Source of the DNA: Magnetococcales bacterium
GTDB taxonomy: Bacteria; Pseudomonadota; Magnetococcia; Magnetococcales; Magnetaquicoccaceae
Direction: 5' to 3'
NCBI GenBank assembly: GCA_002753095.1
Contig: PDZU01000003.1
Location: forward strand, 40,946 to 104,945
DNA: 64,000 nt
Part shown: one piece after another, positions 10,547 to 63,816 of the stretch
Position numbering within the stretch: the first letter of the stretch is position 1
Layout of the letters: the number at the start of each line of letters is the position of its first letter
Position numbers and translations under genes: made by a program
The notes under the pieces: generated by a model
What the model saw: only the letters and a program-made list of their open reading frames with translations
What the model was told of the DNA's origin: nothing
The model's database searches: none

Positions 10547-11980
<1,434 letters not shown>

Positions 11981-14046: not shown

Positions 14047-15867
14047 ATGTGCGGAATTATTGGCGTTATTGGTGAACGAAATGCAACCCCCATTTTGGTG
14101 GAAGGACTGAAACGTCTGGAGTACCGGGGGTATGATTCTGCGGGCATTGCCGTTATTGACGGTACGCACCTGCAGTTGGCACGGGTCAAGGGCAAGTTGC
14201 TCCGTTTGGAGGAGCATCTGGCCAGTGCGCCGTGTACGGGTTTCATTGGTATTGGTCATACCCGTTGGGCCACGCATGGCCCGCCAACCGAAGAGAATGC
14301 CCACCCTCATACCTCTGACCGCGTTGCCGTTGTTCACAATGGGATCATTGAAAATTATCAGCACCTGCGTCAGCGCTTGCAGGATAGTGGGGTGGTATTT
14401 CGATCGGCCACCGATTCTGAGGTTGTGCCGCATCTGATTGAGCAGGCTCTACAGGCGGGTTTAGGCGCAGCAGATGCGGTACGTCGCGCTGTTTCTCAGT
14501 TGGAGGGTGCCTTTGCCCTTGGCATTGTCATACGCGGAGAAAACAGCCTTTTTGCTGTGCGACGGGGTTCACCTCTTTTGGTTGGGGTAGGTGATGGTGA
14601 AAAGTTCATCGCCTCCGACGCTTCACCGTTGGTGCCTTATACGCGACGCATGATTTTCCTGCAGGATAATGATGTGGTGATACTGCAGCGGGATTCGGTT
14701 ACTGTCACTGACCTGCATGGTCAACTGCAACAGCGGGCCATCAAATATTCCCAGGTCAGTGCGGCGTTGACTGACAAGTGGCCCTATCGTCACTATATGC
14801 AAAAGGAGATTTTTGAGCAGCCAACCGTTCTAGGTGAAACCTTGAAAGGGCTCATTGATACGGTACAGCGCACGGTGCAGTTGCAGCACCATCTGGGTCA
14901 GATTGATTTGGGTGCGGTGCAGGCCATCAATATCGTTGCCTGTGGCACCTCCTGGCATGCGGGACTGGTGGCGCGTTACTGGATAGAGCAACTGGCACAC
15001 TTACCGGTCAACGTAGATATTGCCTCGGAGTACCGCTACAGGGAGCCCCCATCCTTGCCCGGCACGCTGGTGGTGGTTATTTCACAAAGCGGCGAGACGG
15101 CAGACACTTTGGCGGCGCTGCGTTTTGCCCGACAGATGGGCCATCCTGTATTGGCAGTGGTCAATGTACCTGAATCGACCATTGCCCGTGAAGCGGATGG
15201 AGTACTCTATACGCAGGCGGGACCAGAGATTGGTGTGGCCTCTACCAAAGCCTTCACCACGCAACTGATCGCGCTGGCCACTTTGGCCCTGGCTCTGGCC
15301 AAGGGGAGGGGCAGGCTCGGTACGAGGCAAGAGGCAGAACTGGTGGATGAACTGTTGCATATTCCCACCCTGATCGAACAGGTTTTGCAACAGGATGATG
15401 CCATACTGGGCATTGCACGGCGTTGGATGCACGCACCGGGTTTTCTATTTTTGGGACGTGGTACGACTTTTCCGGTGGCTCTGGAGGGTGCATTGAAACT
15501 CAAGGAGATCACCTATATTCATGCCGAGGGCTATGCGGCTGGGGAGATGAAACATGGCCCAATCGCCTTGATTGACGAGCATTTACCGGTGGTGGTGTTG
15601 GCGCCACGCGGAACACTCTTCGAAAAGGTCATCAGCAACCTGGAAGAGGCCAGAGCCCGTGGTGGGCGTTTGTTGCTGATCACCACAGCTAGCGATGGTG
15701 AGGTACCTGTGGCTGAATCGGTTTTAACCATGCCGTCTAGTGGACTATTTGCGACACCCATATTGTATGTCGCCCCCTTGCAACTGCTGGCTTATCATAT
15801 TGCTGTACTGAAGGGTACGGATGTGGACCAACCCAGAAATTTGGCGAAAAGCGTCACGGTGGAGTAG
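14047..15867 (+). CDS. glmS: Glutamine--fructose-6-phosphate aminotransferase
   Basis: The N-terminus MCGIIG supplies the catalytic Cys. Two SIS domains are present, and the protein ends in the typical ...SVTVE. Confidence 0.97.
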   Translation: MCGIIGVIGERNATPILVEGLKRLEYRGYDSAGIAVIDGTHLQLARVKGKLLRLEEHLASAPCTGFIGIGHTRWATHGPPTEENAHPHTSDRVAVVHNGIIENYQHLRQRLQDSGVVFRSATDSEVVPHLIEQALQAGLGAADAVRRAVSQLEGAFALGIVIRGENSLFAVRRGSPLLVGVGDGEKFIASDASPLVPYTRRMIFLQDNDVVILQRDSVTVTDLHGQLQQRAIKYSQVSAALTDKWPYRHYMQKEIFEQPTVLGETLKGLIDTVQRTVQLQHHLGQIDLGAVQAINIVACGTSWHAGLVARYWIEQLAHLPVNVDIASEYRYREPPSLPGTLVVVISQSGETADTLAALRFARQMGHPVLAVVNVPESTIAREADGVLYTQAGPEIGVASTKAFTTQLIALATLALALAKGRGRLGTRQEAELVDELLHIPTLIEQVLQQDDAILGIARRWMHAPGFLFLGRGTTFPVALEGALKLKEITYIHAEGYAAGEMKHGPIALIDEHLPVVVLAPRGTLFEKVISNLEEARARGGRLLLITTASDGEVPVAESVLTMPSSGLFATPILYVAPLQLLAYHIAVLKGTDVDQPRNLAKSVTVE

Positions 15868-15913
15868 GGGGCTCACGCACCCTTTGTCTACCATATCCAT
15901 TGATCCAGGAATA

Positions 15914-16813
15914 ATGACAATGCAAAAGAGATGTTTGTTGAATGTTGCCGTGGCACTGTGTTTGTTGGGACAGGGTTACCTTGCCATTTCGGCACACGCT
16001 GCTGACGAAGATAAAACGGTCGTGGCAGAAATGGGTGAGGCCCGTTTAAGCAGGGGGCAATTGCAGAATATGCTCTCTGCCATGCCTGTGGAAAAGCGGC
16101 AGGCATTGCTGGGCAATCCCACTGTGTTGGCCCGCTTGGTACAGGAGGAGGTCGTGCGTCTTTATCTCCTGCAGGAGGCGCGCAAGGGGGGAATGGATAA
16201 AAAGCCGGAGGTGGTCATGGCCATGCGGCAGGCCAGCGAGCAAGTTCTGTTGAATCAATACATGGCTGAGTTGGTTAAACCGGGGGCTGATTTTCCCTCT
16301 GAGGCTTTGCTGCAAGAGGCATATGACAAAAACAAAGCCAAGTGGCGTTCTTTGAAGCGTGTGCATGTGGCGCAGATTTTTCTGCCGGTTAGTCCTGATG
16401 AACAAAAAAATCGCGCCGTGCAACAGGAGATCGTTCGTGTTTACGGTGAGGTATTGCAAAAGAAGGTGAAATTTGGCGATCTGGCCAAGAAATATTCGCA
16501 ACACCGTGAAAGTGCCGAGAAGGGTGGTGATATGGGCTGGGTGACTGGCGATAAGTTATTGCCGGAGTTGGCCCCCCTCTTTATGAGTATGGCTGCCAAC
16601 GAGGTGTATCCACCCGTGCGCACCACCATGGGTTGGCACATTTTTAAATTGCTGGAGAAGGAGTTGGCCCCCATTCCTACTTTGGCTGAGGTCAAGGATG
16701 GATTGGTTAAAGCGATTCGCCGGGAGGCCATGCTGGCTAAAGAGCAAGAGGTGATGGAAAGTGTGTTGAAGGAGCATCCGGCCAAGGTCCACAAGGATCT
16801 GTTGCCCAAGTAA
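15914..16813 (+). CDS. Secreted PpiC/parvulin-type peptidyl-prolyl isomerase (SurA/PrsA-like)
   Basis: A signal peptide MTMQKRCLLNVAVALCLLGQGYLAISAHA is present, together with the parvulin core GGDMGW...MGWHIFKL. The start is moved to the ATG at 15914; the track start would overlap glmS. Confidence 0.75.
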   Translation: MTMQKRCLLNVAVALCLLGQGYLAISAHAADEDKTVVAEMGEARLSRGQLQNMLSAMPVEKRQALLGNPTVLARLVQEEVVRLYLLQEARKGGMDKKPEVVMAMRQASEQVLLNQYMAELVKPGADFPSEALLQEAYDKNKAKWRSLKRVHVAQIFLPVSPDEQKNRAVQQEIVRVYGEVLQKKVKFGDLAKKYSQHRESAEKGGDMGWVTGDKLLPELAPLFMSMAANEVYPPVRTTMGWHIFKLLEKELAPIPTLAEVKDGLVKAIRREAMLAKEQEVMESVLKEHPAKVHKDLLPK

Positions 16814-16842: not shown

Positions 16843-17308
16843 GGGGTCCAGGGGCGATCATCGCCCCTGGCGGGTGCAGGGCGGAGCCATGCTTGTAATG
16901 TGCGGCGTTTTCAAGAAGCAAATGCGCAGCATTTGCGCACGCCGCACAAATCTGTGCCCCGCAGGGGCACTCTCTGGGAGGGCGGACGCCCGACTTTTAA
17001 CCGCGCAAACTGTAACGAATCCTTTTGTGTTCGATGGGCGAAGGCCATGGATCTGGAGCTTGCGGATTCACCTGCGGGAAAAACCCATTGGGAGGATGTG
17101 CGGATTGGCGCATAAAAGCGCGCCAATCCGCACATCTTGCTTCAATAAGGCGCGCTGCGCCGATGCAAAAGGCGCATCGGCTTATCGTGAAAAGCGCGCC
17201 AAAAGGCAACAGATAAAAGCAACAGATAAAAAAACAACAGCTAAATTCAACAGATAAGTTCCCAGGGCTCCGCCCTGGACCCGCCAGGGGGGTGACCCCC
17301 CTGGACCC
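16843..17308. mobile_element. Copy A of a non-coding repeat family: ~465 bp element with ~44 bp terminal inverted repeats (MITE-like) and multiple internal hairpins
   Basis: The left end, gggtccaggggcgatcatcgcccctggcgggtgcagggcggagcc, matches the reverse complement of the right end, gggtccaggggggtcaccccctggcgggtccagggcggagcc. The left ~150 bp is homologous to copies at 29834 and 31622. The element fills the ppiC/yidC convergent gap. Confidence 0.6.
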
Positions 17309-29799: not shown

Positions 29800-29833
29800 C
29801 CCGTATCAGGGTAATCACATGTAAAAGTGGCAT

Positions 29834-30070
29834 GGGGTCCAGGGGAGATTATCTCCCCTGGCGGGTGCAGGGCAGCGCCCTGCTGCAATGGCGCGCTTTT
29901 ACCGAAGCAGATTTGCGCAGCAAATCTGCGCAGCGCGCCAAATCTGTGCCCCGCAGGGGCACGCTTTGGGAGGGCGGCAGCCCGACATGCACCGTGTTGT
30001 CTGAACAACAATACGGAAAAAATTCTATCGTGCCACAGCCAATACGGAAAAAATTCTATCGTGCCACAGC
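29834..30070 (+). repeat. Copy B of the hairpin-rich repeat family (one arm only), ending in a 2 x 31 bp tandem duplication
   Basis: Positions 29834-29986 align with the left arm of copy A (16843-16996) and with the reverse complement of copy C. The copy lies between the priA stop and the ccmE stop. Confidence 0.65.
30009..30070 (+). repeat. Exact tandem duplication, 2 x 31 bp (caatacggaaaaaattctatcgtgccacagc)
   Basis: Read directly from the sequence: 30009-30039 is identical to 30040-30070. The second unit ends 1 nt before the ccmE stop codon (30072-30074). Confidence 0.95.
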
Positions 30071-31399: not shown

Positions 31400-31622
31400 T
31401 TTGGAAGCTTTGTGCGGGGCCATCGTGTTTGAACCTTTCTGCATTGTTGTGTGCAGACAACACGGTGCAGGTCGGGCTGCCGCCCTCCAGGAGCGTGCCC
31501 CTGCGGGGCACAAATCTGTGCGGCGTGCGCAAATGCTACGCATTTGCTTTTGTAAAACGCCGCACATTGCAAGCAGGGCTCTGCCCTGCACCCGCAAGGG
31601 GAGATAATCTCCCCTTGACCCC
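31400..31622 (-). repeat. Copy C of the hairpin-rich repeat family, inverted relative to copy B, inside the ccmB-ccmC gap
   Basis: The reverse complement begins ggggtcaaggggagattatctccccttgcgggtgcagggcagagccctgc and aligns with copy B through ...gcccgacNtgcaccgtgttgtctg. It occupies the 261 bp gap between the ccmB stop (31649) and the ccmC start (31387). Confidence 0.65.
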
Positions 31623-31648
31623 ATGTAACTTTTTTTAGTGCTACTATT

Positions 31649-32323
31649 CTACTCGCTCACCAGCCAGGAAAAAGCCCAGGGGGCCAGCGCCACATAGACC
31701 AGATCAAAGATGAGCAACAGACGCAACCAGGGGCCTACCTCACCGGCAGGATCCAACAGGGCAGCCACCGCTTGCACGCCAGCAATCAACAGGGGAGCCG
31801 TCAACGGTAACAACAACAGGGCCAGCAAAGTCTCGCGGGAACGGGCCGCCTGGGTCATGGCTGCCAACAGCACACCCAAACCGGTCAAACCCAACGTCCC
31901 CAAAAACAACACACCAATGATGGCCGGCAACTGACCCCAAACATCCACATTGAACAGCACCAACAATAATGGCAACAGGGCCAACTCAACCAAAACGGTC
32001 AACAAGAGATTGCCAGACCATTTGCCCAAAAAAAGCACCCCGCGCGGTACAGCGGAGAGCAACAAACCCTCCAGCGCCCCATCCTCCTCTTCAGCCTGGA
32101 AAACCCTTCCCAAACCCATCAGGCTGGTAAACAGAATGGTAACCCATAACAACCCGGGCAATAGTCGCATCGCTTCCCGGCGGTCTGGATCAAAAGCTAC
32201 CTGGAAAACCACCAATACAGCAATGGCAAAAAAAAGCATGGAGGAGAGCGTGGCCCGCCGCCGCCAGTCACCAACCACATCCTTCCAGGCAATGCGGTAG
32301 GCAGCACGTAATAGTTTGATCAC
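31649..32323 (-). CDS. ccmB: Heme exporter permease CcmB
   Basis: It encodes a 224 aa polytopic protein positioned between ccmA and ccmC, and it overlaps the ccmA stop by 4 nt. Confidence 0.85.
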   Translation of the reverse strand: MIKLLRAAYRIAWKDVVGDWRRRATLSSMLFFAIAVLVVFQVAFDPDRREAMRLLPGLLWVTILFTSLMGLGRVFQAEEEDGALEGLLLSAVPRGVLFLGKWSGNLLLTVLVELALLPLLLVLFNVDVWGQLPAIIGVLFLGTLGLTGLGVLLAAMTQAARSRETLLALLLLPLTAPLLIAGVQAVAALLDPAGEVGPWLRLLLIFDLVYVALAPWAFSWLVSE

Positions 32324-38788: not shown

Positions 38789-38865
<77 letters not shown>

Positions 38866-38902
38866 ATCTCCTGCCTCCTCGGTGGAGAACGCCTCATCGC
38901 CT

Positions 38903-38979
38903 GCGCTCGTAGCTCAATTGGATAGAGCAACGGCCTTCTAAGCCGTAGGTTACAGGTTCGACCCCTGTCGGGCGCACCA
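38903..38979 (+). tRNA. tRNA-Arg (anticodon UCU)
   Basis: The acceptor stem is gcgctcg/cgggcgc, the anticodon loop is ctTCTaa, the T-arm is ggttcgacc, and the CCA end is encoded. Length 77 nt. Confidence 0.9.
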
Positions 38980-40169: not shown

Positions 40170-40246
40170 GGCGAATGTAGCTCAGTTGGCAGAGCCCTGG
40201 ATTGTGGATCCAGTTGTCGTGGGTTCGAGTCCCATCGTTCGCCCCA
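40170..40246 (+). tRNA. tRNA-His (anticodon GUG)
   Basis: An extra 5' G(-1) opposite the C73 discriminator is encoded. The acceptor stem is gcgaatg/cgttcgc, the anticodon loop is ttGTGga, and the CCA end is encoded. Length 77 nt. Confidence 0.9.
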
Positions 40247-40335
40247 GATTTTCCCCGCCCACTCTTTCGCTTCCGCTCCTCCCATCACTTCCCGTCGAAT
40301 CCCTGTGCGTGCAAATCGATCTGCAGGGTCACTGT

Positions 40336-40420
40336 GCGAAAGTGGCGAAATTGGTAGACGCCCTGGACTTAGGATCCAGTGCCTTCGGGCGTGGGGGTTC
40401 AACTCCCCCCTTTCGCACCA
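40336..40420 (+). tRNA. tRNA-Leu (anticodon UAG)
   Basis: This is a class II tRNA with a long variable arm (gtgccttcgggcgt). The acceptor stem is gcgaaag/ctttcgc, the anticodon loop is ctTAGga, and the CCA end is encoded. Length 85 nt. Confidence 0.9.
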
Positions 40421-40991: not shown

Positions 40992-43900
40992 TTAGGTTTT
41001 ATCCACACGCTCTCGTTTGGTCGCCGGTTGCGCCCAGCGGGCAATCATCGCCTGAAAATCCTTGCCCCGCACCGGCTTGGTCATGTAGTCATCCATGCCA
41101 GCCGCCAAGCAGCGTTCCCGATCTCCCTGCATGGCAAAAGCCGTCAATGCAATAATCGGCACCCGACCCTGCCCCGGTACACTGGCCTCCTGCAAGCGCC
41201 ACGCATGACAGGCCGCATAGCCATCCAGCAACGGCATCTGACAGTCCATGAATACCAGATCATACGCCTGTGTTCGCAACTTCTCCAAGGCTTCCACACC
41301 ATTCTCGGCCACATCGGCCTGAATACCCAAACGGCGCAACATACCCAATTCTACCACCCGATTAACCGGATCATCTTCCACCACCAAAACCCGGTAACTG
41401 TTCAGTGCGTCTTCCCCCTCGGAGAGGCCCGGCACAACCATCTGCGGCAGTTCCTCCGCCTTGGGATAGGCCAAAGGCAAGGTGACTCGAAACAGACTTC
41501 CCACGCCGACAGTGCTCTCTACCTCAATTTCACCCGACATCAACTGCACCAGCATTTTGGTGATGGCCAGCCCCAAACCCGTTCCTCCATAGCGGCGGGC
41601 CACTGCCTTGTCTCCCTGTTCAAACAGCTTGAACAGACGCACAAAAAATTCCGGGGCAATGCCAATACCGGTATCGCGCACCTGAAAGCAAATCAGATGC
41701 ATCCCTTCCGCCATCTCCGGCTGCAGTTCCACCCGCTCGGCTGTCAGAACTACCTCACCCTGATGGGTAAACTTGATACCGTTGGAGAGCAGATTGACCA
41801 AAATCTGCCAAACCCGCACCGAATCACCTTGCACAAGCCGTGGCAGATCAGGGGCCAATTGAATGCTGAACTGTAACCCCTTCTCCTTGATCAACCCCTC
41901 AAAGAGTTTGGTCAGGCCATGCAGCAACTGGTGCAGGTCAAAATCTTTTTTCTCCAGCGTCAACTTGCCCGCCGAGATCTTGGAATAGTCCAGAATATCA
42001 TTGATCAACGTCAACAAGGCTTCGCCAGCCTGCATCATGCTGCTGGCATAGTGACGCGCCTTGTCAGAAATCTCTTCGGCGCACAGCAACTCCGCCATGC
42101 CGACGATGGCATTCATGGGCGTGCGAATTTCATGACTCATGGTGGCAAGAAATTCACTCTTGGCCCGATTTTCGGCATCGGCACGCACCTTGGCATCTTT
42201 CAACTGGCCAATCTGCGCATGTTCGATCAACACAGCCAACGCGTTGGTGGCGGTGTGCAAAAATTCCTCTTCAAAGGGGCTGCTGTCGCGATCGGCGTCC
42301 AGGTACAGATGCAGCACACCCAGCACCCGATCTCCTGACTGCACAGGAATACAGTAGTGACCATAGGCACTCTCCTCTTCCGCATGGGCAGTCATCGGTT
42401 TGTGACAGCGGAGAGGTTTGTTCTCTTCGGCCACCTGTCCACATAAACAGTGGCCAAAAGGAACCAACGCACAATTGCTGCGCACCGAAGCCGGTAACGC
42501 CTCTTCGGCGATCAGTTGCAGTTGCCGGGCGGCACGATCGGCCAAAAAAATGGCCCCTCTCTTTTGCAAAGTCAACCAGGGCACAGCCAAAATGGCCCGC
42601 AAAGCCCGCTGCAACTGATCCGCCAGCGGGGCATCCTCCAGGGCAATGCGCAACAGATCACTGACCACCCCTTGCGCCTGATTGGCACGCCGTTCCAAAA
42701 ATTCCGCCTGACGGCGCTCCTGCACCTCGTGCTGCAACTCGGAAGTGCGTAACAACACCTGCTGTTCCAAAGAATAATTGACCTGATTCATGCGCCCTTC
42801 CAGCAATTTGCGCTCGGTAATATCAACGCAACTCCCGGAAAAACCCATAAAAAATCCATTGCCCGCAAAACGGGGCAAGGCGGTCTCATAAAACCAACGA
42901 TACTCCCCCTGGCTGTTGCGGAGTCGAAATTCCAACGAATAAGGGTGCAGATGGCTAAAGGCTTCGCTGGAAAAAAAACGATAGCGCTCCAAATCTTCTG
43001 GATGAACCCCCTGTTGCCAACCGCCATCCAACTCCTGTTCCAGAATCACCCCACGAAAACTCAACCAGGATTTATTGAAAAACATCCGTTTATTGTCTGG
43101 ATTGGAGAGCCACAACAGCCCAGGCACCGAATCGGCAATAAAGCGAAACTCATTTTTCAGAATCTCAAAATAGTCCAGATTGAGGCGATCCAGGTTCAGG
43201 AAGGTAAAGGCCGACACCACCTCCCTGCCCAGAGTGTTATGGGTGGTGGTCACGCAAAAACGGGTATAGAGCAGTTGCCCGGTCAGGGTGTTGAGATAAA
43301 TCTCATGGATCCGTTTATCGGTACGGGGTATCCAGCAGAGCGCCTTTTGCATGGGCGCCCGATTGTCGTGATTGACAAACTCCAGGGGAGTTTTACCAAT
43401 AAAACTCTCGCGGGAGTGGCCCAACATGGCACACAAGGCATCATTGACTTCGATGATTTGATGGCTGCGGGCATCGATGATCCAAAAGCCCTTCAGATCG
43501 GAGTGGATGATGTCGGAACATAGCTCGGTATTGCCGGTGCGGCGACTGTAGCGCAAAAAACTGCGGGCATGCAGGCGCAAACGGGCGATCATCTCCACTT
43601 TGCTGGGCAGTTTGACCAGATAGTCGTTGGCCCCAGCAGCAAAGGCTTGCGCCTTGATATAGGGATCCTCTTCCGAAGAGAGCATGACAATGGGCAACTG
43701 GCTGAAACTGCGCCGATTGCGAAAACGACGGATCAAAGTGATCCCATCCACCTCCGGCATCAGCAGATCAACCAGCAACAATACCGGTCGAATGGTCTCC
43801 GCCATCTGGATGGCCTGAGTCGGATCTGGACAAAAATGAAGTTCCAGATCTGTTTCATGTTTGAGGATCTGGTGCAGGAGCCGCTCGGTGACCTCTTCAT

Positions 43901-45033: not shown

Positions 45034-48000
45034 TCAGCGCTCTTGCCCTTTTTCTGAGCGACGCAGATGGTGATCCAATATCTGGCGCAAGGGGGTCATA
45101 AAGACAGGCTTGCTCAAGAAATCGTCCATTCCTGATGTTGCGCCATTGCGGCGGCTCTCTTCGGTGACATCGGCCGTAAAGGCGATGATGGGAATGGGTT
45201 GTTTGCCACGCTCTGCCTCCCACTGGCGAATGGCGCGGCTGGCTTGATAGCCATCCATGACCGGCATTTGGCAATCCATCAGGATCAAATCAAAACGACC
45301 GGTCTGATAGCATTCCAGCGCCAGTTGACCATTGGCGACACAGACAATCTGTTCCCGGCGACAACCCAAGCGTACCAGCATGCCCTGGGTGATTTTAAGA
45401 TTGGTGGATTGATCATCCACCACCAGGATGGCCGCCTTTGCCAATAAATCCTCTGTGGACATACCTTGGCGAGGCACTGCAGAGAGGGCGTCCCTTTCCG
45501 ACACAACCCGCTCTTCTCCGGCCAGAACGGCTGTCGGCAGACTCTTGATGCGTATGGTAAAAAAGAAGCGACTACCCACCGGCGCCGCTGGATTGGGCTC
45601 CACCGCAATCCGCCCCCCCATCATGGTGACCAGATCGCGGCTGATCGCCAACCCCAGGCCAGTACCACCAAAACGGCGGGTAATACTCTCATCGGCCTGC
45701 GTGAAGCGTTCAAAGATACGCTGCCGCTTCTCCTCTGGAATACCCACACCAGTATCCTGCACCTCAAACAGCAACTCCAGTTCGTCCCCCAGCTGTGCAA
45801 TCTGTTCACCACGCAACTGCACCGTACCCTCTTCCGGTGTAAACTTGATGGCGTTGCCCAGCAAATTGATCAACACCTGCTTGAGTCGGTTGGCATCTCC
45901 ATATACCAGCACCGGCCAACCATCGGGCAGAGAGCAAGTCAAACGAATGCGCTTTTTGCGCGCCGAAATGGTCATGGTTGCCGACAGCTCCCGGATCAAA
46001 TCCGGCAGATTGAAAGGTGCAGGATTCAATTGCAACTGTCCTGCCTCAATCTTGGCATAATCCAGCAGATCATTGATCAACAACAACAGGGCACGGGCCG
46101 AACCGTAGGCCAATTGCAACTGCTCCTGTTGTTCATCGACAGGTGGGGCATCCTGGACCAGTTCCAAAGCGCCAATGATGGCGTGCAACGGGGTGCGAAT
46201 TTCATGGCTCATGTTGGCCAAAAAGGCACTTTTGGAACGATTGGCCGCATCAGCCCTGCTGGCTGCCACCCGCAGAGCCTCTTCCCGATGTTGCCGTTTG
46301 ATGGCAATACCAATCAACTGTAGCAAAGGCGCCAGACGATCACTGAAAAACGACTCACCAAACCGCTTCTCCCGATCATAACCGGCCAGAGTACCCAACA
46401 CTTCGCCCCCCTCGCCGATGATCGGTATCGACCAAAAACTTTGCAAGCCCACCTGACACAAACATTCATGCGTTTGCCATTGTTGGTCTCCGCATAAATT
46501 TTCCATATAAATCATCTCTTTGCGATACGCAGCAATGCTGCACGGAGTGGTGGCACTCTGCAGCAGAATGCCCTCCTCTGCCGGACAGCGATAATTTTCC
46601 AGCCCGGCGATACGCAAACGCGGAGCCGTCAGGCAGTAGAGACGCTGTTCTGCATGGTTGACCATGGCAAAACAGGATACCATGCCCGGAAACAGCTCCT
46701 CGACATAGCGCATGACCAAACTGTAACTCTCCGCCAGGGGCGCTCCTGAGGCAACCACCTCCAGGAGTTGTCGCCGATAATCATCCTCCTTTTCCTGGCG
46801 CTTTTTGGCGGTAATATCCTCCTTGATGGCCAAAAAATGGCGAATTCGTCCTTCTGGATCGCGGACCGGCGAAATGGAAGCCGACTCCCAATAGCAGAGA
46901 TTATCCTTGCGACGATTGTAAAATTCACCCTGCCACACAACCCCATCTAAAATGGTGCGCCACATGTCGGCATACACCTCTGGACCAAAATGATCGGTTT
47001 TCAGCAGGCGGGGATTTTGACCCAGCAACTCCTCCTGGCTATAGCCTGTGGATTGGATGCAGGTGCGATTGACATATTCGATACTGCCAGCAATATCGGT
47101 AATGACCACCGTGATGGGGGTTTGATCCAGGGCATGGTGTAGCTTGCTCAACTCTGCTTCGTGCCGTTTGCGTTCGGCCACTTCCCGCATCAACAGGCGG
47201 CTGCGACTGGCCAAAGTGGCCACCATGGCCAAGGCACCCACCGCCAGCAACAAAACCATGCCTGCCGCCAATTGACCCCAAAACTTCCAGGAGGCGGAAC
47301 GGATACGCTGGGCCGCCAAGGTCTGCGTATCCTGCTGAATCATGGTGCCCATATCCCGCAGCAGATCAATCATGCGGGTAACCGCGATGAACCACTCTTT
47401 GGGATCCACCGCAAAGCCCCCTTCGGCATGACGTTGCACCACACGGGCACGAAATCGGTTCAATTGGCCCTGGGTTGCCTCATCATCTACCGCCTGGAAA
47501 ATATCCCGGTAACGGTTGGAAGACAAAGCCAACAACGTGTCGATATGGGCTTTGCGCTCACCTTGCAGCATGTTCCACCGTTCATACATGCCCGGTGACA
47601 GGGCGTCGGCGGTAAAAACCTCGGTCAACAATGCCCGCTCTTGCCCCAAGGATTCACCGATACGCAATAGGGAGGGCAGAACAAAAAAACGGTTGATCAA
47701 CTCCACATCCGCAATTTGCACCACCAGCTTACTGATCAGCTTGAGAACGACTGAGACAAAATGGGTATAATCTTCAATGGATTCATAGGCATCAACCGTT
47801 TGCCGATCCACCTGTTGGCGCACCACCTCCAGGCGGGACAACTCCTGCATCATCTCTTCGAACAATGTCAAAAAATGGCTATCCTCCGCATTGAGCGAAA
47901 GATGCGTGGAGAGATACTGTAGCTGTTGGCGAATATATTGATCGGTATTGCTGCGATGCTCCTGTAATTCGACACGAAACTGCTTGCCATCACTGGCCAA

Positions 48001-58330: not shown

Positions 58331-61018
58331 ATGGCACTTCCTCATCTACCAGCACCGCAGATACGCAGGCCGATTTTAGTCGTGTTTCTCATGGCCATAG
58401 CGATTCTGCTCGGTGTATTCGTTCTCTCCCTGTCCAGCATGCATGAACAGCATGAAAAGCTTGCCACCAACCAGCTCAAGCGAGCGATTCAGCAAATCTT
58501 GGCCCATTTTACCCAATCGCATGTCGATGAAATGACAGGCCATCTGTACGGTTTGGCACGGGATCGTTCACTGTATAAAAATTACCTCCAACAGGGTCGC
58601 CCTGCCTTACAAAGCGCGTTACAGGAAAAATTTAACGTATTTTCCAAACGTGACATCACCCATCTCTATTTGCATGATCTGGAACGACGTGTTGTCTTGC
58701 GCATGCATCAGCCCAACCATTACGGCGACCGCATTGAGCGGGAAACCCTGTTGCGGGCCGAGGAGAGCGGGCAACCCCAATCGGGGCTGGAACTGGGTCC
58801 ATTGGGGACAGTGGTTCTGCGGGTGGTCCTGCCGTGGGAGGTAGAGGGCAAGCGCAGGGGATATTGGGAACTGGGTATAGAAATTGACCATTTTGTGCGA
58901 TTGATCCGCAGTGCATTGGGGGTGGAGGTCCACCTGTTTGTGGAAAAGCGCCTGTTGAACCAGGAACAGTGGCAGGCGGGGATGACCATGTTGGGGCGTC
59001 CAAACGAGTGGGAGCAATTTGCCGAGGTGGTGTGGATAAACAGTGGCGAACCTGGCGCTGTTCATGAACTGCAGCGCCATTTGCAACAAAGAATGGCGCA
59101 CGGGATGTTATTGGAAGAGGGGAAAAGTCACTATTCATGGCATGATCACCGCCTTTATTTTTTCTGGCCATTGCCGACATTAACCGGCGAGAGGGTGGCC
59201 TGGATGGGGGTCAGCAAGGATGATCTGCCGGAGGGGCGGCAGCATCGGATCCATGTCTGGCTGATGCTTGGCAGCGGACTATTGCTGGCACTGCTCTTGG
59301 GTACCGTTTTGCACCGCTATTTGCGGGATTTGGAACAACGTTTGACAGCGGTGCAGCAGGCACTGCAGCAGAGCGAACAGCGCACACGCTCCATCGTGGA
59401 GACGGCCATGGATGCCATCATCTCCATTGATGCCAGTAACCGAATCCTGGAATTCAATCCGGCAGCAGAACGGATGTTTGGCTATGAACGCCACGCCGTG
59501 TTGGGTCGGGATGTCACAGAAACGATTGTGCCAGAAGAGTTGCGCGCCAGACATCGCCAGGGAATGGCTCGGTATTTGGCAACCGGAGAGCAACGGGTCA
59601 TCAACAAGGCAGTCGAACAGATTGCCATCGATGCCCAAGGCAGACGCCTGCCGGTGGATTTAGTGGTCACGGTTGTATCGAATCAGGGGGGCACATTCTT
59701 TACAGCATTTTTGCGCGATATTACCGAACGCCGTCGCATGGTGGAATTTTTGCAGGAGTCCTATGCCAATCTGGAGCAGATCAACCGCCAACTGAGCGGT
59801 GAAATGGCTGAGCATCAAAAAACGATGCACCGTCTGGAAGCGGCACTGCAGCGGGCAGAGGCGGCCAATCTGGCCAAGAGTCAGTTTTTGGCCAGCATGA
59901 GCCATGAGATTCGTACCCCGATGAACGCCATTATCGGTATGAGTGATCTGTTGTATGAAAGCAGCCACCTCAATCAGGAAGAGCAAAATTACATACGAAT
60001 CATGCGCCAGGCCGGAGAAACCTTGCTGGCTTTGATCAATGATCTGCTGGATCTTTCCAAGATTGAGGCAGGTCAGATGATTATGGAGCAGATACCCTTT
60101 GATATGCAGCGCTTGTTGATCAATGCACAGGAGATGATGCACCTGCGCGCACTGGATAAAGGGTTGCCGCTGGTCCTGGAAGTTGCAAATGAGGCGGTGA
60201 AACCATTTCTGGGGGATCCGCAACGCCTGCAGCAGGTTATTCTCAATCTGGTCAGCAACGCCATCAAGTTTACTGCCCAGGGATCGGTGACCATTCGCAT
60301 GGGTTTGTTGGCTCCGCAGGGCTGTTGGATTGAGGTGCAGGATACGGGAATTGGCATTGATCCACAGATGCAGGAGGCCATATTTCAACCATTTACCCAG
60401 GCAGAAATGTCAACCAGTCGTCGTTTTGGTGGTACAGGACTGGGGTTGACCATCTGTCGCAAATTGATCCGGCAGATGGGGGGTGAAATCACGGTTCAAA
60501 GTACAGTAGGGGAGGGGAGCCTGTTTCGCTTTTGGCTGCCCTTGCCGTTGGCGCCAGAGGAGGCACAGCGGAACGCCTGTTGTGGTGCGCATGCGCAAAG
60601 ACAAGAGAGCCTCCCAGGCCGTGCAGAGGAGGATCATGCCCTGGTCCGCTTGTTACTGGTGGACGATGCCGATGACAATCGCCTGTTGATACGGGCCTTT
60701 TTGAAGCGCAGCCGCTATCAGATCATGGAAGCGACCAATGGGGAAGAGTCGCTACGCTTGGTACAGGAAAACGCTTTTGATCTGGTCTTGATGGACATGC
60801 AGATGCCGGTCATGGATGGTGTTGAGGCCACACGGCGCATACGGGCCTGGGAGCAGGCGCATGGCCGTGCAGCAGTGCCAATCATTGCCCTGACCGCCCA
60901 TGCCATGAAAGAGGATGTAACCCGCACGATTGAAGCGGGTTGTAGCCTGCATCTGACCAAGCCAATCACCAAGTGCGTGCTGTTGGAAAGCATCGGGCGG
61001 TGTTTGCGTTTGTCATAA
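58331..61018 (+). CDS. Hybrid sensor histidine kinase (periplasmic sensor domain, TM, PAS, HisKA-HATPase, REC)
   Basis: Two TM segments flank a ~270 aa extracytoplasmic domain. A PAS domain is present (IVETAMDAIISID...). The H-box is FLASMSHEIRTPMNAI, the G-boxes are VQDTGIGI and GGTGLGLTI, and the receiver is LLLVDDADDN...LMDMQMPVMDG. Confidence 0.9.
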   Translation: MALPHLPAPQIRRPILVVFLMAIAILLGVFVLSLSSMHEQHEKLATNQLKRAIQQILAHFTQSHVDEMTGHLYGLARDRSLYKNYLQQGRPALQSALQEKFNVFSKRDITHLYLHDLERRVVLRMHQPNHYGDRIERETLLRAEESGQPQSGLELGPLGTVVLRVVLPWEVEGKRRGYWELGIEIDHFVRLIRSALGVEVHLFVEKRLLNQEQWQAGMTMLGRPNEWEQFAEVVWINSGEPGAVHELQRHLQQRMAHGMLLEEGKSHYSWHDHRLYFFWPLPTLTGERVAWMGVSKDDLPEGRQHRIHVWLMLGSGLLLALLLGTVLHRYLRDLEQRLTAVQQALQQSEQRTRSIVETAMDAIISIDASNRILEFNPAAERMFGYERHAVLGRDVTETIVPEELRARHRQGMARYLATGEQRVINKAVEQIAIDAQGRRLPVDLVVTVVSNQGGTFFTAFLRDITERRRMVEFLQESYANLEQINRQLSGEMAEHQKTMHRLEAALQRAEAANLAKSQFLASMSHEIRTPMNAIIGMSDLLYESSHLNQEEQNYIRIMRQAGETLLALINDLLDLSKIEAGQMIMEQIPFDMQRLLINAQEMMHLRALDKGLPLVLEVANEAVKPFLGDPQRLQQVILNLVSNAIKFTAQGSVTIRMGLLAPQGCWIEVQDTGIGIDPQMQEAIFQPFTQAEMSTSRRFGGTGLGLTICRKLIRQMGGEITVQSTVGEGSLFRFWLPLPLAPEEAQRNACCGAHAQRQESLPGRAEEDHALVRLLLVDDADDNRLLIRAFLKRSRYQIMEATNGEESLRLVQENAFDLVLMDMQMPVMDGVEATRRIRAWEQAHGRAAVPIIALTAHAMKEDVTRTIEAGCSLHLTKPITKCVLLESIGRCLRLS

Positions 61019-63740: not shown

Positions 63741-63816
63741 TGGGCGGGTAGCTCAGTCGGGAGAGCGTCGGCCTTACAAGCCGAATGTCGCAGGTTCGAA
63801 CCCTGTCCCGCCCACC
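63741..63816 (+). tRNA. tRNA-Val (anticodon UAC)
   Basis: The acceptor stem is gggcggg/cccgccc, the anticodon loop is ctTACaa, the T-arm is ggttcgaacc, and the CCA end is encoded. Length 76 nt. Confidence 0.9.

Follow-up and report, generated by a model that had tools for sequence, protein, structure and literature searches.

Repetitive extragenic palindromes (REPs), bacterial interspersed mosaic elements (BIMEs) and the REPIN/RAYT systems are characterized by hairpin palindromes, a conserved unpaired tag at the hairpin foot and high copy number. REP/BIME elements are extragenic, lie 3' of stop codons in convergent or co-directional spacers and almost never in divergent ones, combine with other motifs into mosaics, frequently form tail-to-tail dimers and show compensatory changes in pairing. 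In the GTAG and CGTC super-families (Di Nocera et al. 2013, PMC3733652), a tag and a stem-loop likewise lie less than ~20–60 bp past the upstream stop codon, and no dedicated transposase is known for the CGTC class. Here we describe a family of non-coding repeats found in a 64-kb stretch of DNA (hereafter the window), read as part of contig JADGCX010000006.1 of the Magnetococcales metagenome-assembled genome (MAG) GCA_015228825.1, which represents an uncultured magnetotactic coccus. The family shares these features, and the distribution of REPs relative to open reading frames (ORFs) in PMC3733652 shows the same pattern as our elements. Several properties set it apart from REPs: its tag is GGGTC instead of GTAG, its elements span 160–260 nt with 5–6 different hairpins instead of 20–40 nt, no RAYT gene is linked to them, and their first two hairpins (HP1 and HP2) are near-identical in several phyla, in contrast to REP sequences, which as a rule are specific to one species. 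We favor, with moderate confidence, the reading that these repeats form an undescribed, high-copy, non-coding family of mosaic mobile elements of the REP/BIME kind in Magnetococcales.

The window holds four elements, namely the type-1 copies A, B and C and the type-2 copy A', which is convergent with A. Each consists of a short A-rich leader, 1–4 GGGTC-tagged hairpin units (HP1, HP2) and then family-specific hairpins: HP3, whose asymmetric internal loop is conserved, followed by HP4 and a tail hairpin, to which some copies add HP6. All are non-coding and carry 5–6 perfect hairpins. The elements and their parts are located as follows.

16843–16994, plus strand: copy A, type 1; starts 29 nt 3' of the stop of a rotamase gene (15821–16813)
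16848–16870, 16876–16892, 16899–16948, 16954–16970 and 16977–16994, plus strand: HP1, HP2, HP3, HP4 and tail hairpin of copy A
17073–17308, minus strand: copy A', type 2, convergent with A; starts 17 nt past the yidC stop (17326)
17304–17284, 17278–17262, 17261–17205, 17200–17149 and 17136–17095, minus strand: HP1, HP2, microsatellite, HP3-like hairpin and 17-bp hairpin of copy A'
29812–30070, plus strand: copy B, type 1; an insertion of ~259 nt in the 13 nt that separate the stop codons of the convergent genes priA and ccmE
29839–29861, 29867–29883, 29890–29939, 29946–29962 and 29969–29986, plus strand: HP1, HP2, HP3, HP4 and tail hairpin of copy B
31400–31640, minus strand: copy C, type 1; within the ccm operon, in the spacer from ccmB (stop at 31649) to ccmC, in sense orientation
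31617–31595, 31589–31573, 31566–31517, 31511–31495 and 31488–31471, minus strand: HP1, HP2, HP3, HP4 and tail hairpin of copy C

A preliminary description of this stretch had compared copies A, B and C with a "right end" of A. That fourth instance does not belong to A and instead forms the 5' beginning of the convergent minus-strand element at 17308–17073. The region 16843–17305 is two convergent elements, each beginning just past the stop of its own gene (rotamase on the plus strand, yidC on the minus strand). All hairpin sequences quoted in the description were found where it had placed them. Copies B and C run ~25 nt further 5' and 60–80 nt further 3' than its hairpins 1–4.

In copy A, HP1 is preceded by a GGGGTC tag and HP2 contains one G/A mismatch. 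HP3 of this copy is built of a 9-bp outer stem, a 10-nt internal loop on the 5' side, an 8-bp inner stem closed by a GCA triloop and a GCA bulge on the 3' side, and HP4 has a GCA triloop as well. Copy B opens with the leader TAAAAGTGGCATG and has a tentative HP6 at 29992–30016 with one G·T pair, the counterpart of which in copy D (see below) is CCGTATCG/CGATACGG. The 3' end of copy B (30009–30070) is a perfect tandem duplication of the 31-nt unit CAATACGGAAAAAATTCTATCGTGCCACAGC, including the 3' arm of the tentative HP6. Copy C carries the CAAGGGG/CCCCTTG variant of HP1, a GTA loop in HP3 and a 3' extension to ~31400. The type-2 copy A' contains a microsatellite of (ATCTGTTG)-like units, an HP3-like hairpin with the GGCGCGC/GCGCGCC outer stem and GCA bulge seen in copy B, and the 3' end CTCCCAATGGGTTTTT.

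A protein search with the element translation led, through a mis-annotated CcmH, to contig JADGCX010000055.1 of the same MAG (contig 55; coordinates on it are those of locus L244). Four further elements lie within 16 kb of this contig, giving eight elements in 80 kb of the MAG: the type-1 copies D and E, the type-2 copy F and one solo palindrome. Copy F (10959–10715, 3' of gyrB) is identical to A' in architecture and is distinguished from it by another HP1 apex and by compensated replacements, of G:C with T:A in the 17-bp hairpin and of T:A with C:G in HP3. The microsatellite between HP2 and HP3 of type-2 elements varies in unit and copy number, with ATCTGTTG-like units in A' (17205–17261) and TTGCTTTTATCTTTTGTTTT in F (contig 55, ~10800–10900); loci of Magnetococcus sp. 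DMHC-8 (e.g., L044 and L068) have the unit TGC(C/T)GT. The solo palindrome (contig 55, 3468–3506), located between convergent genes, is perfect over 39 nt (CATGGGGTCCAGGGGAGAT-T-ATCTCCCCTGGACCCCATG) and corresponds to an HP1 whose tag and leader are also present as inverted copies. Its form suggests an origin by snap-back or template-switch synthesis, as expected from hairpin-templated DNA synthesis or repair.

Pairwise similarity is 88% over 152 nt between A and C, and 90–92% over 62 and 69 nt between B and C. The HP4 17-mer is present in three exact copies, compared with 0.47 expected with up to 3 mismatches, and the HP1/HP2 junction 19-mer has four matches, compared with 0.06 expected; these counts lie so far above expectation that chance does not explain the repeats. 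One HP1/HP2 module is joined to three downstream module sets (type 1, type 2 and a DMHC-8 type). Repeated stem-loop palindromes, extragenic placement 3' of ORFs and mosaic structure, by which REP/BIME elements are recognized, were all observed.

The preliminary description had proposed that pairing is kept while the sequence changes, and the collection of more copies strengthened this proposal. Scanning genomes with an HP1/HP2 junction pattern recovered four type-1 copies from Magnetococcus sp. MYC-9, arranged in two convergent pairs (L033 and L081), which together with five from the window genome gave nine distinct type-1 copies. In the alignment of HP3–HP5, made with a covariance model built on these hairpins, 235 of 235 cells were standard pairs; two-sided changes affected nine pairs (23 cells), and no pair had a one-sided change. 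Absence of covariation in a larger alignment had been named beforehand as an outcome that would count against the proposal; with more copies, none of 500 shuffles reached the observed values, and shifted partner columns were 29–52% paired. RNAalifold predicted HP1–HP5 from seven copies, with two-sided changes at 18 of 51 pairs. The inner stems of HP3 (GCAAATGC, GCAGATTTGC, GCCAATTTCC, GCCCATTGGC, GCCGATTTGC and GCACATTTTC) are all fully paired around a GCA loop, or GTA in copy C. HP4, which had been described as invariant, is so inside the window but not beyond it: its GTGCCCC/GGGGCAC form is replaced in MYC-9 by the compensated CCGCCCC-GCA-GGGGCGG.

The HP1/HP2 module behaves in the same manner in a sample chosen by a pattern that fixes one arm of each hairpin. 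Among 128 module instances in the matches listed, we counted 34 apex variants of HP1, with 32 of the variants prolonging the stem to a 3–4-nt loop (0 of 2,000 shuffles). The basal pair covaries perfectly in both hairpins, being C-G in 86 and A-T in 31 instances of HP1, and C-G in 90 and G-C in 22 instances of HP2. The statistically supported retention of pairing while the sequence changes indicates that the hairpins matter. Collectively, these data confirmed that the compensatory conservation of the hairpins is real and more general than the three window copies.

Presence and absence at orthologous sites, as found for mobile elements, was also observed. The window CcmC shares 87% identity with the Candidatus Magnetaquicoccus inordinatus protein and 81% with the MYC-9 protein. 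No element is present in 20 kb of the syntenic region in the closest relatives available (L245/L246) and in MYC-9 (L247). In L245/L246, 13 nt separate the stop codons of priA and ccmE, versus 272 nt in the window, which brackets an insertion of ~259 nt at 29812–30070, and the ccmB–ccmC spacer is 56–90 nt long in the relatives L245 and L247 versus ~306 nt in the window (~240 nt extra). In L245/L246 (87% CcmC identity), both site B and site C lack an element, as does site C in MYC-9. Conversely, the glmU–glmS spacer contains an element in DMHC-8 but none in the window. Because orthologous sites are empty in relatives, the elements represent inserted, gained or lost DNA. The comparison of the filled and empty priA/ccmE sites revealed no terminal inverted repeats, and no convincing direct repeat indicative of target-site duplication was seen at this single clean junction. 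A transposon carrying ccmC and ccmE between copies B and C was considered and ruled out, as these are ordinary ccm genes that occur in equal order in repeat-free relatives.

Gene context was determined with calls from a dicodon model, which matched the deposited annotation in a test region. Among the matches listed, 31 Magnetococcales modules have genes on both sides: 14 lie between convergent genes, 16 between co-directional genes and one between divergent genes. The distance from the stop codon to HP1 on the same strand was 3–57 nt in 13 of 13 copies from the window genome, MYC-9 and two metagenome contigs for which the gene calls are reliable. The 16 co-directional cases (among the matches listed) comprise 10 elements in sense and 6 in antisense orientation. 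DMHC-8 has antisense singles and tail-to-tail dimers in co-directional spacers, and these antisense copies make the orientation a bias and not a rule.

The preliminary description had suggested a structured RNA or a protein-recognized DNA structure. The latter agrees with our data, as the elements fit REP/BIME-type mobile palindromes, whereas the former is not favored; the evidence points to DNA-level palindromes over a structured RNA gene. G·U intermediates are common in families where constraint acts on RNA alone. The stems here hold to strict Watson-Crick pairing: among ~1,630 pairs of HP1/HP2, we found 5 G·T and 7 A·C, and no G·T occurred in the 235 cells of HP3–HP5. Many of the changes are transversion flips (C-G to G-C, A-T to T-A), which provide no route through a wobble state. 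The fold z-scores were −5.2 for the sense RNA, −6.3 for the antisense RNA and −5.9 as DNA, and thus both strands are alike. The loops are 3–4 nt long (GCA, GTA, AGA, AGC, GGA, TCA, GCT and CACT) and are not of the GNRA or UNCG type; C-GNA-G triloops and GCGAAGC mini-hairpins are unusually stable as DNA. A consensus scan of the elements detected no promoter-like site, and no intrinsic terminator was present on the sense strand of type-1 copies, with weak matches only antisense of HP3. DMHC-8-type copies have a terminator-like hairpin between an A tract and a T tract. The near absence of G·U, equal folding of both strands, minimal loops and lack of promoter and terminator, together with mosaics, stop-codon placement and empty sites, support the DNA reading. 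A protein-coding repeat was ruled out: the openness of all frames results from G+C richness, and the copies are frame-shifted relative to each other after indels.

If the elements are mobile palindromes, the hairpins would form in single-stranded or extruded DNA and be recognized by copying or maintenance machinery. The conserved unpaired tag beside each hairpin foot would then parallel, by analogy, the tags of REP/RAYT and IS200/IS605-type systems. Mismatches in the palindromes could be cleared by selection for recognition, or by intra-palindrome repair or template switching; each would yield double changes without G·T intermediates. Transcribed 3' placement, mostly in sense orientation, would leave a very stable hairpin block at mRNA 3' ends or between cistrons, presumably as a consequence of placement and not as the cause of the covariation. 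By analogy with E. coli REPs, this block probably impedes 3' exonucleases. Among elements that move as single-stranded DNA, those of the IS200/IS605 type and their miniature derivatives, palindrome-associated transposable elements (PATEs), similarly lack terminal inverted repeats and evident target duplication, have hairpins set back from both ends and require strict hairpin pairing in one strand. In contrast to IS200/IS605, no parent element or Y1 (HUH) transposase is linked to the present elements, and no conserved target tetranucleotide can be defined from the few junctions. In addition, their orientation follows the neighboring gene instead of one replication strand (A/A' and B/C lie in opposite orientations within 15 kb).

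Several observations weigh against a mobile DNA family. No transposase or other trans-acting gene was found in the collected sequence, and a tblastn search of 1.6 Mb of genome fragments with an approximate RAYT query, a weak test, returned no match (best E = 0.16). The tag is GGGTC, and the tags that define the GTAG and CGTC super-families are absent. The stem and loop rules of the CGTC class (stems of 8–9 bp with A/T at the first two positions, loops of 4–5 nt; PMC3733652) do not apply either, as our stems begin with C(C/A)AGGGG, are G+C-rich and close on loops of 3–4 nt. The full type-1 sample is nine copies, and the HP3–HP5 pair counts come from an alignment fitted to its model. Unpaired segments (GCA loops, internal loop TTTTACCGAAG, tail GGAGGGCGGCAGCCCGAC) are kept between genomes while the stems vary, which reveals a sequence-specific constraint that may act on RNA or DNA. 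Moreover, wherever co-directional neighbors make the orientation of a type-1 element informative, it lies in sense (five of five: C in the ccmB–ccmC spacer, E in the ccmG–ccmH spacer, D, and the P0005 and P0006 contexts), and such consistent polarity is also predicted by a function at the RNA level.

The last two points lead to the alternative of a cis-acting structured RNA domain in 3' untranslated regions (UTRs) and intercistronic spacers, which would serve as a 3' exonuclease block, processing site or protein-binding platform, with selection acting on the RNA and spread as mere delivery. We regard this as a serious contender, albeit a fairly unlikely one. The strong covariation would be explained, as would the uniform position past same-strand stop codons, the sense polarity and the conservation of unpaired GCA loops, HP3 asymmetric internal loop and tail. 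Two copies inside the ccm operon, without a sense terminator, must be transcribed, and RNAalifold also suggests a closing GGGG/CYCY helix with G·U pairs. However, G·U is otherwise virtually absent, the two strands fold equally well, and triloops predominate in place of stable RNA tetraloops. Antisense copies in DMHC-8, such as that at glmU–glmS, do not fit an RNA domain, and empty sites in close relatives indicate that the flanking genes do not need the element. The polarity itself comes from a small sample (5/5 gives p ~0.03), in which tail-to-tail dimers make the convergent cases uninformative.

Other explanations account for fewer of the observations. An ordinary miniature inverted-repeat transposable element (MITE) would make 16843–17305 a single 463-bp unit with 46-nt inverted ends formed by HP1 and HP2; its ends are indeed inverted and 93% complementary over 28 nt, DMHC-8 has tail-to-tail pairs with a conserved center, and the insertions are non-autonomous and MITE-sized. 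Yet the terminal inverted repeats of a MITE are missing from copies B, C, D and E, all of them single-ended: their two ends differ, and an inverted partner is not found nearby. In addition, the arms A and A' belong to different subfamilies, each complete alone. With no target-site duplication visible at the one clean junction and no transposase gene seen in the collected sequence, we consider a MITE improbable. Even less probable, in our estimate, are double-stranded DNA operators bound by a dimer of a host protein, for instance a nucleoid or topology factor, in which the palindromes would not be extruded. Gyrase and IHF bind E. coli BIMEs, and the odd-centered perfect palindromes with conserved outer half-sites (CCAGGGG/CCCCTGG), a variable center and strict Watson-Crick symmetry resemble operators. 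Variable centers that are self-complementary up to a 3–4-nt loop are, however, unneeded for a spacer between half-sites, the conserved asymmetric internal loop of HP3 is meaningless in a duplex, and the stem sequences of HP3 and HP4 vary freely. We give hardly any credence to independent multi-copy small RNA genes. The stable folds of the elements (z −5 to −6) and a weak likeness between HP1 and hairpin 1 of the Clostridiales-2 RNA would agree with such genes; the missing promoter-like site and sense-strand intrinsic terminator, the direct abutment on stop codons and Clostridiales-2 scores far under the gathering score do not.

Beyond the mobile REP/BIME-type family that we favor, two bolder versions appear doubtful, although they deserve mention: the GGGTC unit could be the single-stranded DNA substrate of a putative, horizontally spreading trans-acting enzyme and constitute a third REP super-family, or type 1 could be a polar 3'-UTR RNA domain.

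The genome scan with the HP1/HP2 junction pattern identified at least 115 loci. The module has a 45–50-nt core that reads GGGTC, C(C/A)AGGGG-variable apex-CCCCT(G/T)G, and CGGGT(C/G)CAGGGC-triloop-GCCCTG. Among the matches listed, the six bases 5' of the HP1 stem were GGGGTC (47), CGGGTC (37), CCGGTC (18) and similar. Magnetococcus sp. DMHC-8 contributed more than 40 modules to the matches listed, six Magnetococcales MAGs carry the module, and many Acetobacteraceae/Rhodospirillales and other alphaproteobacterial MAGs have it with tags and flanks intact. It also occurs in Desulfovibrionaceae, including the isolate Halodesulfovibrio spirochaetisodalis, in one MAG each of Thermodesulfobacteriota, Acidobacteriota and Victivallaceae, and in Oscillospiraceae, Ruminococcus and Selenomonadaceae MAGs. 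The 5' core is nearly identical in Magnetococcales, Acetobacteraceae/Rhodospirillales, Desulfovibrionaceae, Acidobacteriota, Lentisphaerota and several Firmicutes; the taxon names are as given by the MAG depositors, and mis-binning may affect some contigs. The sequence 3' of HP2 differs by lineage, with 1–4 units at a period of ~24 nt. No common neighboring gene was found around the modules in low-copy genomes. The recurrence of a tagged two-hairpin module across phyla hints at a mobilizing activity and raises the same question as the CGTC REPs.

In a Selenomonadaceae MAG of 36% G+C (L101, 2380–2460), a G+C-rich island of 75 nt with three units lies in A+T-rich DNA and looks like a recent horizontal insertion. 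The island is flanked by the inverted pair CAGACTGTAGAC/GTCTACAAGCTG and two copies of GGAATGTAAAATTCC. The plasmid database gave one match, in Rhodovastum atsumiense, and a scan of viral contigs gave six, of which three proved to be true modules on prophage-like contigs; the module is not confined to phages. In a Rhodocyclaceae MAG (L106, 228–2300) and the related viral contig L239, the module directly follows an ORF beside a ParB-like gene and a Zot-like gene, the latter for filamentous-phage assembly, which is an inovirus or plasmid-like context. GCGAAGC-type mini-hairpins (…CCCGCGAAGCC…) precede the module at seven loci (L018, L111, L008, L012, L087, L076 and L106) from Desulfovibrionaceae, Acidobacteriota, Thermodesulfobacteriota and Rhodocyclaceae. 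The flanks are nearly identical between the Acidobacteriota MAG bins.101 and the Desulfovibrionaceae MAG X3_MetaBAT.36, a sequence likeness that suggests either a recent transfer or an error of binning or taxonomy. A metagenome scan with the 18-mer of the tail returned only chance matches in coding DNA and a 53-nt tandem array that looked unrelated. These arrays, from seawater metagenomes (L158 8663–8786, L187, L208 and L217), combine at a 53-nt period the type-1 tail motif GGAGGGCGGCAGCCCGAC with the HP4-like CCCGCAGGGGC at similar spacing, and represent a distant relative or a coincidence.

In agreement with the preliminary description, which could match the hairpins to no RNA family, Rfam 15 gave no match to the elements at the gathering score. 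The gathering-score search covered the window and 18 diverse loci and returned tRNAs or nothing; in the window, the only matches were five tRNA genes within 38789–38976, 40171–40417 and 63742–63814. In E-value mode, only sub-threshold Clostridiales-2 (RF02937) and noise were found. The 5' hairpin of RF02937 (GGGGGU-GCAGGGG...CCCCUGC-CG) resembles one GGGTC-tagged unit, whereas its second hairpin and Shine-Dalgarno-like linker are absent here. Membership in RF02937 was ruled out, as the scores were 31.2 (A'), 21.8 (L101), 15.4 (B) and 14.0 (C) bits against a gathering score of 58.6, with the first hairpin alone alike. Integron attC sites are also recognized as folded single-stranded DNA hairpins and keep their structure while the sequence varies. 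Unlike attC, the present elements have no R''/R' GTTRRRY core sites, cassettes or integrase context, and their perfect stems lack the extrahelical bases by which attC is defined. Full-text literature searches (exact strings; Magnetococcus with REP; Clostridiales-2) retrieved nothing relevant, and the REP surveys, including PMC3733652, mention neither the module-bearing taxa nor the tag. A match to an already described REP, BIME or MITE family had been named beforehand as an outcome that would count against the proposal; the elements are of the same kind as REP/BIME, but no described family matches them.

The elements also affect annotation, giving rise to spurious ORFs and altering at least one deposited protein. 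The 236-residue "CcmH" (MBF0097860.1/MBF0115163.1; contig 55, 10001–10711) has a GTG start that overlaps the end of ccmG and reads through element E, and its ~75 N-terminal residues (…MGSRGDYLPLRVQGGALLQWRAFTEADLRSKSAQRA…) are translated repeat. The true CcmH start probably lies close to the signal peptide KNKACFSLFLLLL. Breaks of MAG assemblies at contig ends are another probable effect of the elements. As a compact natural data set of many hairpins that are perfectly paired without wobble intermediates, they bear on the general question of how selection on RNA structure can be told from maintenance of palindromes at the DNA level.

Three other similar stretches occur in the window. The segments 41961–42182 and 46033–46254, which lie 4,072 bp apart, show a direct similarity of 76–78%, and 59853–60483 shows an inverted similarity of 74–83% to both. 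These are most likely paralogous sensor-kinase genes outside the repeat family.

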